Positions 38,660 to 41,630 of a stretch of 64,000 nt of DNA are shown here, in pieces. Each line of letters starts with the position of its first letter. Position 1 is the stretch's first letter. Origin of the DNA: Octopus vulgaris (Eukaryota); NCBI GenBank assembly GCA_951406725.2, contig OX597818.1, forward strand, positions 67,704,001 to 67,768,000, written 5' to 3'. The translations under genes and the position numbers were made by a program. Under the pieces are notes generated by a model that worked only from the letters and a program-made list of their open reading frames with translations, ran no database searches and was not told the DNA's origin.

Positions 38660-38924
38660 TATTTTGCGTTACTCTTAGAAGCGGTGCGCAGTACCAGAAT
38701 TTATTATTAATATATCCACCGGAATATGGTATAGTGGTTATGAGCGCGGGCTACTAACGCCAAGATTCCGAGTTCGATTCCAAGCAGTAACCTGAATAAT
38801 AATAATAATAATAATAATAATAATAATAATAATAATAATAATAATAATACTATACCATATTCCCGTGGATATAGTAATAATAAATTCTGGTACTGCGCAC
38901 CGCTTCTTAGAGTAACGCAAAATA
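38660..38924. repeat. 75-bp inverted duplication (38660-38735 and 38849-38924) enclosing a tRNA-like head and (TAA)n
   Basis: ATTTTGCGTTACTC..GCGGTGCGCAGTACCAGAATTTATTATTA..GGAATATGGTATAGT and its reverse complement, about 3 mismatches. Confidence 0.9.
38716..38794 (+). mobile_element. tRNA-like Pol III head of composite element E, followed by (TAA)n
   Basis: A box TGGTATAGTGG, anticodon-like arm GGGCTACTAACGCC, B box GAGTTCGATTCC; homologous to 41374-41439. Confidence 0.75.
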
Positions 38925-39137
38925 CGCAAAATACTCTCTATGTAATCCCATGGTTTAAAACAAACTTTTTTTTTAAATTTATGTATTAGACATTCACTAG
39001 TACAACACCAAAAAAACCCCAAATATATGGCACACTAGACATAACAACAACATGAACTTCCAACCTGTTGTCTCTTGAGGTCTCTGGGTGTGACTTGGAG
39101 CCAACTTGTACAGACATAAAGCAAAAGTCAAACATAT
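38924..39137 (+). mobile_element. Extremely 5'-truncated R4/Dong insertion (last codons plus 3'UTR)
   Basis: CGCAAAATACTCTCTATGTAA encodes RKILSM*, paralleling RRALSM*; 3'UTR hairpin, then (TAA)n. Confidence 0.7.
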
Positions 39138-39305
39138 AATAATAATAATAATAATAATAATAATAATAATAATAATAATAATAATAATAATAATAATAAA
39201 AACAACAACAACAACAACAACAATCATAATGATAATAATAACAACAACAACAACAACATCGACAAATACCTTAGGAATGAGAACCCAAGTTCGAAATTTC
39301 CCCAA

Positions 39306-39351
39306 GAAACCTGATGAATGCTGGAATGTATATCAGCCGAAATGTTGTGTT
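39306..39351 (+). ncRNA. Minimal type I hammerhead-like motif in the 3' part of element E (about 39256-39440)
   Basis: AC-CTGATGA-A-TGCTG(GAATGTATAT)CAGCC-GAAA-TGTT-GTGTT. Confidence 0.65.
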
Positions 39352-41297
39352 AACAACAAACAAAAAGAGGACAAATATCCGTCAAATGTAAATAATATAA
39401 ATAACGTACATAATTCCTCGTCTCTTAAAAATATAGAACTGTATTTCTCCCAGCGTTCTCTATTATCTTCTCGTTCTGGTCTTACGACCCTCCATATTTG
39501 TTTTTGTTCGGTTTCCTTGTATGTTTCCACTGTCCTGTTTTTGTTCCCAGCTTTGACCCTCAATAAATCCAAAATAGTATTTTGGAATTAATGGGAGCAA
39601 CTCATATTGTCGTTGAATGCTCGAAATGAGGAATAGATAGACAGCCGACAACTGATGAAATGTCGTTGTTTGTGTTACTTGTCCTGTTTATTTGACTTAT
39701 TTGTTTTCGTACTTCGTGTGTTTACAGAGTCGGCGAAGGCCTGTGCCCATATATGCATATATAAAGTGTCTATCAAAGTCTTGCTGACGAACCTTAAAAA
39801 TCGTTTCGTTTTTGATAAGGATTAAATGCTTATAGCGATTATTCACTTATTCTCTCCAGCCAATTAATATTATGCGTACAGGTGCACCATATGTCACATA
39901 TCAAACGCCACGTTAAAGCTAAGTAACGTAGAATACAGTGTTTTGCTGAAGAAGGCATCTGCCGCTCCGGGAATCGCAGCCACGTTCTTGCGACAATGAG
40001 TGGAATGCTTTGGTCACAATAGTAGATACATACATATATGCATGAACCTCTCTCTATATATATATGTGTGTGTGTGTGTGTGTGTTTGTTTGCGTCTGTA
40101 CATGTATGCATCTGTAGAGAAGCATATGTATATATATATACATCCATGTATATGTATATATGTGTGTGTGAATGTATTTATATGTATGTATGCATGCATA
40201 TTATGATGATAATGTAAACTACCATTCTCTCCTTGAGTGCACTTGTCTCTTATAAATTGGTTGTCTCTCTCTTTCCCTCCCCCCATAACCCCTCACGAAA
40301 GGAAAAAAACACACGCACAAACACACGTTTACATATTTCAGTGTAACTACTAACGTGTTTGCCTGTGTGTCTGAGAATGTTTCTGATCACAAGACTCACT
40401 TTAACACAACCTAATTGAAGAATATTTCACAAAAGGGGGTCAAAGAATAATTATTAGTTATTATATATAATTCACAACTATAACGCTAATAATTTCCAGT
40501 GAGAAATAAACATTTCCGATACACCACATTAAAGTAAATAAGAAAATGTGATTAGTACAACCTCTCCATTTTACTGCTCTCTCCTTTCAAAATGTTTTCC
40601 TTCTTTTCCTCTTCTCCATCACTTCATCGGGAGCGCCAACGTGTAGTTTGTTGCAGCCTCTTAACATCACAGACGCTAAAATGTTATTCAAGGAGAGAAC
40701 ACGGAATCCGTAAGCTAGTACTAATCCTATTCTCTTGTTTACTTTTATTTGTTCTACCAAGATGGCTTATTACTCGCTAAACACTTATCCATCTCACAAT
40801 TACTGTGAGAACCCTTTGCGTGTTTTAATTTGCATCCACATTAAATTTGCATCTCGTTTCTCGAGACTAGTGGCGGCTTGTGTACTTTAACAATAAGATT
40901 GCTTTACGGGTTACACGAATCCATTCTGATGAATACGAAAAGAGTGATTCCACAGCACTAATCGCACCCTCAAACAGTCACATCTTTGCTGTTCCGATGG
41001 ATCAAAGGAACTGCGGAACCAGATGTTATCTATACTCAAAAGCAGCTTGAAACACACCTACAAGAATCAGTGTGAGCTTTCCATATGGTAGCCATTCGTA
41101 TCCACTTGCACCTGAAACTAAGTTAAATGCACGTGCTCAGATTTTGTGAAAGCATACATACATGCATAATTACATACATTCATACATATATATACATACA
41201 CACATATATATATACGTACATGTATATGTATATATATATGTATATATATGTATATATATATATGCATATATATATATGTGCGTGTGTGTGTTTATAT

Positions 41298-41359
41298 ACA
41301 CAACATTTAGGCTGATATAGCTTCCAGCCATTATCAGATGCTTTGGGGTAATTTCGAAC
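41298..41359 (-). ncRNA. Degenerate inverted copy of the 39289-39351 hammerhead segment
   Basis: Minus strand GTTCGAAATTACCCCAAAGCAT-CTGATAA-T-GGCTG(GAAGCTATAT)CAGCC-TAAA-TGTTGTGT; core mutated. Confidence 0.6.
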
Positions 41360-41373
41360 AACTCAGCCATAGG

Positions 41374-41439
41374 CCCACGGGCGTATGGCGTAGTGGTTCT
41401 AACCCCAAGATTCCGAGTTCGATTCCAACCAGTGACCTG
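41374..41439 (+). mobile_element. tRNA-like Pol III head of element E (second copy, internal deletion), followed by about 190 bp of (TAA)n
   Basis: TGGCGTAGTGG..CCCCAAGATTCCGAGTTCGATTCCAACCAGTGACCTG. Confidence 0.75.
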
Positions 41440-41630
41440 GAAAATGATAATAATAATAATAATAATATTAATAATAATAATAATAATAATAACAATAACA
41501 ATAATAATAATAATAATAATAATAATAATAATAATAATAATAATAATAATAATAATAATAATAATAATAATAATAATAATAATAATAATAATAATAATAA
41601 TAATAATAATAATAATAATAATAATAATAA

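Follow-up and report, generated by a model that had tools for sequence, protein, structure and literature searches.

Penelope-like elements (PLEs) whose terminal repeats (pLTRs) carry minimal hammerhead ribozymes, schistosome repeats that join a Pol III promoter to a hammerhead, and tRNA-derived long terminal repeats in Helenus are already known from the parts of the literature compared here. In the Anolis element Poseidon_Ac, an ORF for a reverse transcriptase (RT) with a C-terminal GIY-YIG domain starts within the hammerhead, the pLTR overlaps the ORF start, a tail of 30–40 nt within the ORF is flanked by two internal sites of RT initiation, and inverted, 5′-truncated arms occur (PMC11167929). 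Such arms and one-sided tails are described features of PLEs (10.1101/2021.04.23.441226). The octopus family analysed here resembles Poseidon_Ac in its RT and GIY-YIG ORF, in the overlap of pLTR and hammerhead with the ORF start, and in its tail and inverted arms. In contrast, its pLTR contains an (AAT)n tract and a tRNA-like cassette that bears an A box and a B box and at which most copies end, and its consensus lacks TTTT, features not described for Poseidon_Ac in the part of that report compared here (PMC11167929).

The octopus hammerhead shares with those of other PLE pLTRs an extra base between positions 9 and 10.1, a G10.1-C11.1 pair, a 5 bp stem I and a palindromic stem III, and truncated PLEs likewise display opposite-strand hammerhead pairs 100–700 bp apart; no tRNA-derived part like that of the octopus pLTR, however, is reported in the compared portion of that work (PMC4209133). 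The schistosome SINE-like repeats Sm-alpha and Sj-alpha, in which a tRNA-related Pol III promoter accompanies a hammerhead, are similarly built, but they are non-coding, often tandem, and freed as monomers by the ribozyme, whereas the octopus unit belongs to a coding PLE and its ends are not defined by ribozyme cleavage (PMC6765202, PMC2770079). The TRIMp3 elements (Helenus, Ajax, Cassandra) also carry a small-RNA-derived, Pol III-type sequence in the terminal repeat, proposed to originate from a SINE insertion into the repeat; these are non-autonomous LTR elements with a PBS and PPT, in contrast to the pLTR of an ORF-bearing PLE (PMC10886601). Animal non-LTR retrozymes are short hammerhead units related to PLE pLTRs, as is the octopus unit, but they are defined as tandem arrays, and the terms “tRNA”, “Pol III” and “octopus” are absent from the main text of the report that describes them (bioRxiv 10.64898/2026.07.22.740005).

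Relative to this literature, a coding PLE whose pLTR harbours a tRNA cassette, at which most head-reaching copies stop, is likely to be new, no report of such an arrangement having been found there. The family may nevertheless already be listed in a repeat catalogue (Repbase, Dfam, SINEBase or the PMC13282606 library) or in the PMC13282606 supplement. A tRNA cassette in the terminal repeat, coupled with internal RT initiation, would offer a route to SINE-like families inside Penelope elements, giving tens of thousands of SINE-sized copies without a separate SINE lineage. Such short copies would be misfiled as SINEs or retrozymes, and they map a likely PLE transcript start at genome scale.

The Unit Is the pLTR of a Coding Penelope Element

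Two loci in the 64-kb stretch of octopus DNA analysed here (the window) had been proposed in a first-pass annotation to be halves of a free-standing, non-autonomous SINE/retrozyme hybrid. Searches of the 2.8 Gb genome returned 512 first-look candidates with the head and 2,677 with the body as query. The unit consists of a 79-nt head, a variable (AAT)n tract and a 183-nt body that carries the minimal hammerhead and a 30–33 nt tail. In 27 of 29 head-anchored loci (the window's own excluded) the head is succeeded by a body in the same orientation, which bears out the proposal that the window loci belong to one family with linked head and hammerhead.

The unit is not free-standing, but is the pLTR of a protein-coding Penelope/Poseidon-type retrotransposon, in which the ORF stop and a gap of 25 nt precede the tRNA-like head, and (AAT)n, the hammerhead-containing ORF start and the tail come after it. 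A recurring loose end before the head led to a common upstream sequence (1,146 matches at ≤1 mismatch), which is the 3′ end of the ORF; the head starts 25 nt past the stop of this RT and GIY-YIG ORF, and 23 of 30 loci anchored on the RT carry it downstream in the same orientation. At the other side of the unit, the body ends at the tail directly before the ORF N-terminal region, as a direct 5′ pLTR, in 18 of the 30 loci anchored there. The consensus frame opens with an ATG at body position 21 (window 39277) and spans 837 codons that take in the hammerhead, the tail, the RT and a GIY-YIG-type domain, the ORF start thus being encoded by hammerhead and tail. It contains one consensus stop, at codon 312, through which a single copy (L231) reads. 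Identity to a protein from the databases (P0003) is 57% across 831 aa, the hammerhead-encoded peptide included.

RT motifs and a GIY-YIG-type C terminus were read by eye in the consensus ORF; Pfam analysis of copy L231 gave RVT_1 (E=3e-6) and no GIY-YIG match, and some close homologues of the ORF carry PF01541. The zinc finger that lies between RT and endonuclease in Neptune/Nematis elements is absent here; two Neptune-type ORFs elsewhere in the genome have it. The family thus combines the PLE features of an RT with a C-terminal GIY-YIG domain, direct and inverted pLTRs, a one-end tail in the ORF start and the minimal hammerhead motif; its placement in the Penelope/Poseidon clade comes from these compared features. 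All copies found are decayed, none being intact and full-length, and the longest stop-free stretch is 569 aa. Runs under three other organism labels also contain related sequence, among it contigs spanning the junction between ORF and head. We consider it about 75% probable that the window loci are decayed short pLTR copies of this coding element, with the head likely marking the RNA start.

A separate partner was also sought among GIY-YIG matches (30 loci plus 20 fetched); these were mostly Neptune-type, with unrelated 3′ ends. One young Neptune-type PLE family (L109:664-3006 and many further loci) has many intact 781-aa ORFs, and in several Neptune families the terminus consists of a hammerhead-like motif, altered in its core, and then (TA)n. 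A third PLE clade in the genome is likely represented by a GIY-YIG ORF whose C terminus differs (CxxC...H; L110:2334-2843). Internally deleted tandem derivatives of the octopus element, in which a pLTR plus 400–900 nt of ORF start is joined to a downstream pLTR, were observed as well (L258, L259, L262, L267, L268, L274, L275, L277, L280) and could be non-autonomous masters; several of their junctions enter the body at 89–99, near the predicted ribozyme cut.

Layout of the Window Copies

Copy 1, on the forward strand, is a complete solo pLTR that retains its tail; a nested LINE and an inverted duplication of local sequence interrupt its spacer. Its tRNA-like head (38716–38794), assigned by alignment and a tRNA-likeness test, matches the family consensus at 91%, with a CpG-decayed A box at 38727–38737 and a B box at 38770–38781. 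The first part of the (AAT)n spacer (38795–38849) is followed by an inverted duplicate of 38660–38735 (38849–38924, minus strand, 96% over 76 nt). This duplicate is foreign to the pLTR family, its source being flank plus the first 20 nt of the copy 1 head; the flank part had no match among the other fetched loci. Next to it, on the plus strand, lies the 3′ end of an unrelated LINE with an (AAT)n tail (38925–39136), which codes for an ORF C terminus and has 81–91% matches in five other loci, with an (AAT)n-like tract next in 5/6 matches. The duplicate adjoins the 5′ end of this LINE via a 9-nt microhomology, which suggests that a template switch during LINE insertion made the duplication. The second part of the spacer, (AAT)/(AAC) in sequence (39136–39256), leads into the pLTR body (39257–39441, 92% to consensus), which in full-length copies runs on into the ORF. 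The body contains the ORF ATG at 39277, a mutated hammerhead at 39306–39351 and the Penelope tail at 39409–39441. No target duplication was found around copy 1.

Copy 2 comprises an inverted, 5′-truncated arm remnant on the minus strand (41298–41359, body positions 33–94), a plus-strand tRNA-like head with a 14-nt deletion (41375–41439) and a plus-strand (TAA)n spacer (41443–41630). BLAST of the unit against the whole window found no forward body after this spacer. Instead, a 5′-truncated LINE from outside the pLTR family is inserted in the (TAA)n (41631–42670, plus strand); it has an ORF with a weak zf-RVT match (E=0.003) and is multi-copy and (AAT)n-flanked in other loci. From its motifs we take it to be R4/Dong-like. 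More generally, the (AAT)n spacer of the pLTR is a frequent landing site for unrelated (AAT)n-tailed LINE and SINE families, which often part head and body (38925–39136 and 41631–42670 in the window; L007, L122, L123, L131, L011 and L140 elsewhere).

The first-pass description of these loci stands in most respects: the two heads align and each runs into (TAA)n, a sense hammerhead of minimal type I lies past the copy 1 tract, and the inverted, mutated segment upstream of the copy 2 head is an 82% homologue of it. Both ribozymes are indeed mutated, copy 1 in stem I, G10.1 and C15.2, and copy 2 at core positions G8 and G12. Contrary to the same description, in which neither copy held all modules together, copy 1 has every module in order, split by insertions.

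Integration Signature and Proposed Copy Mechanism

Copies insert singly, in tandem or head-to-head, with target duplications of ∼11 bp. In 86 loci there are 38 head-to-head (inverted) pairs, one nested locus being counted twice, and 8 tandem neighbours. Exactly one arm carries the 30–33 nt tail in 35 of the 38 pairs (19 expected, p=3e-8); 2 pairs have it on both arms and 1 pair lacks it. Target duplications of 8–14 bp (median 11) flank 25 of the 35 one-tailed pairs, compared with 0.4% of 1,188 mismatched pairs. The one-tail rule, these duplications and the PLE features already described indicate that the inverted hammerhead represents the head-to-head arm typical of Penelope elements; it is an integration by-product and not, as had been annotated, a module of the element. 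The suggested mobilisation by a Penelope RT is supported by the same rule and duplications.

The 3′ ends of copies are bimodal, with 69/135 at body positions 140–159 and 58/135 at 175–183. By analogy with Anolis Poseidon, the element RT/endonuclease would nick both DNA strands, and reverse transcription would begin at two internal sites ∼30 nt apart in the ORF start, corresponding to tail-less ends near body 140–159 and tailed ends near 183. On an RNA beginning at the head, a start at the first site would yield only a 250–350 nt copy stopping at the head, and we propose that such starts account for the surplus of copies of SINE size. A head-to-head unit with one tail would result when two cDNAs of this kind, each from a different nick and start site, are joined at their far ends; the one-tail rule fits the two-start-site model found in vitro. 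A predicted 9-bp hairpin in the consensus body (107–166, window ∼39363–39424) encloses in-frame 9-nt repeats where tail-less ends cluster, and may be a candidate RT start stem-loop.

Most Head-Reaching Copies Stop at the Head

The 5′ ends were analysed in 85 position-ordered loci with 139 arms, of which 55 start in the body, 32 have no head within 900 nt and 52 have the 3′ part of the head. Ordinary truncation is therefore also frequent (87/139). Among the 37 arms that reach head position ≤8, however, 31 stop between −12 and +8 and 6 go on upstream (30/36 stop without one row that is counted twice), a pile-up with p=9e-23 against the truncation rate inside the head. Position +5, the equivalent of tRNA position 1, starts 9/37 arms (one counted twice), and starts also cluster just upstream. 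Exact genome-wide 18-mer counts are 973 at −192, 1,101 at −28 and 5,660 at +34, or ∼2,200, ∼2,700 and ∼18,000 when calibrated by hit rates of 22/49, 22/54 and 16/52, respectively. Copy number is thus flat along the ORF and then steps up ∼7-fold at the head which, together with the 31/37 stops, makes the head the likely RNA 5′ end. The hammerhead 18-mer has 5,587 exact occurrences genome-wide and is intact in 14/75 and 5/35 copies not selected on it, implying ∼30,000–39,000 arms in the genome.

The pile-up could instead reflect RT stalling or fold-back on longer RNAs, at the small GC hairpin of the head start, with no promoter there. Many head-to-head junctions are indeed palindromic fold-backs at the head start, but this hairpin has just a few base pairs, stronger hairpins such as hammerhead stem II show no comparable pile-up, truncations within the body are evenly spread, and heads without an adjacent inverted arm start at the same spot. 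We therefore regard a stalling hotspot as unlikely, and favour the head as RNA start.

It had further been proposed that RNA ends be mapped to the predicted cut. Against an RNA start at the head, three unstranded RNA-seq runs labelled as another organism gave no pile-up of read starts or ends at either the head or the cut site; 78–79% of the placed reads continue into unlike sequence, i.e. come from embedded copies. RNA depth was ∼1–8 at the ORF N terminus versus ∼1,500 at the hammerhead.

Which Polymerase Reads the Element

The A and B boxes, the starts near tRNA position 1 and the absence of TTTT hint at Pol III transcription, and we put recruitment of Pol III by the boxes for a short RNA at about even odds. 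TTTT is absent from the 2,658-nt consensus, which contains 14 TTT runs; synonymous shuffling predicts 2.9 occurrences (P=0.026), whereas with an order-2 Markov model as the null the deficit is weak (P=0.19). For comparison, two Neptune PLE ORFs from this genome contain 8 TTTT each, in 2,343 nt and 1,722 nt, with 1 in a shorter third, and eight distant relatives, which are richer in T, contain 41 in 9,235 nt. An unrelated LINE fragment likewise has none in 804 nt. No A/B-box match was found in eight metagenome relatives (34–42% identity), whose flanks are short.

A bolder version holds that the coding element switched to a captured tRNA promoter and that Pol III reads the whole TTTT-purged 2.66 kb unit. 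Pol III would be unusual for a protein-coding element, and we regard this version as doubtful. If true, one family would supply both its own SINE and its own LINE-like driver, and would be a rare Pol III-transcribed coding element, raising the question of how uncapped RNA is translated.

Alternatively, RNA starting at the head may come from an ordinary Pol II promoter in the pLTR, the tRNA-like boxes being a passenger or just an enhancer. This is favoured by a TATAA that overlaps the ORF stop, at positions −30 to −26 relative to the head start, although upstream TATA boxes also aid many Pol III promoters. Translation of an ORF normally requires capped RNA, and the TTTT deficit is weak under the Markov null, both of which accord with Pol II. 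So does the report that PLE transcripts begin in the upstream pLTR (PMC6765202). The clustering of starts about the tRNA position-1 equivalent and just upstream, and the lack of TTTT relative to the two longer Neptune ORFs, are harder to reconcile with it. We rate the Pol II version as a serious contender at somewhat less than even odds.

Copy Ends Do Not Lie at the Ribozyme Cut

The copy 1 motif (39306–39351) has its predicted cut after 39346. It was recognised from core boxes and stems in the family consensus, and no Rfam hammerhead family matched it, so the suggested covariance-model search lent no support. All core boxes are nevertheless present in the consensus, as the first-pass annotation required. 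Copy ends lie at the head and tail sites and not at the cut; truncations near the predicted cut show a slight, non-significant excess (15/87, p=0.056). The hammerhead is probably dispensable for setting copy ends.

A retrozyme-like cycle, in which hammerhead cleavage frees a unit-length RNA that circularises and defines the copies, would account for the full set of core boxes, for the palindromic ACGU retained for dimer folding, for a common family variant that sits on the free N7 position and for the slight excess of truncations. It accords poorly with the placement of the copy ends, and the predicted active dimer fold (−20.7 kcal/mol) is less stable than the predicted minimum fold (−29.2). 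The tandem arrays with cut-set ends that characterise non-LTR retrozymes are also not found, the 86 loci containing 8 tandem neighbours versus 38 inverted pairs. Moreover, cleavage-dead mutants of the Anolis element still insert in vitro (PMC11167929). Such a cycle is very unlikely here.

Short Copies as Products of ORF-Bearing Masters

Short copies outnumber ORF-linked ones ∼7:1. Ohshima and Okada reportedly described three octopus SINEs in 1994. In a reading close to that of the first-pass annotation, the short copies could be an independent Penelope-dependent SINE, with Pol III masters of its own that amplify apart from the ORF-bearing element. Besides their number, the copies begin at the tRNA-like 5′ end and carry the A and B boxes of a tRNA-derived SINE. 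Their heads are slightly nearer the consensus (92.7% identity versus 90.1% for ORF-linked heads, the two sets being selected differently), and some body deletions, few in number, are commoner in one class than in the other. Masters distinct from the partner's were not found, however: comparison of 87 short with 53 ORF-linked heads revealed no fixed diagnostic substitution, and the main polymorphisms are common to both. In addition, the RT of the Anolis element needs ORF RNA beyond the tail, which is absent from solo copies (PMC11167929). An independent SINE is thus improbable, and the lack of a fixed difference, together with this template requirement, makes the short copies most likely dead-end products of ORF-bearing masters.

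Origin of the tRNA-like Head

The head, which has both an A box and a B box, resembles tRNA beyond chance, with a best score of 64 against 36 tRNA sequences from fetched loci and a maximum of 52 for 1000 dinucleotide shuffles. ARAGORN found 0 tRNA genes in the window and the Rfam tRNA model gave no head match at E≤10; the head has decayed too far for either. Arg scores best as tRNA parent among the few isotypes retrieved, and a degenerate pattern for a guessed parent gave 0 matches. A probable origin of the head is the insertion of a tRNA-SINE-like sequence with an (AAT)n tail into the 3′ UTR of the ancestral element, which thereby captured it. The head of another tRNA-like repeat (L091:3393-3454, L095:2130-2191) is 68% identical over 62 nt and is a possible relative of the captured cassette. 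The window also contains an inverted pair, 81% similar, of a further tRNA-like repeat head (36000–36131 and 37490–37621).
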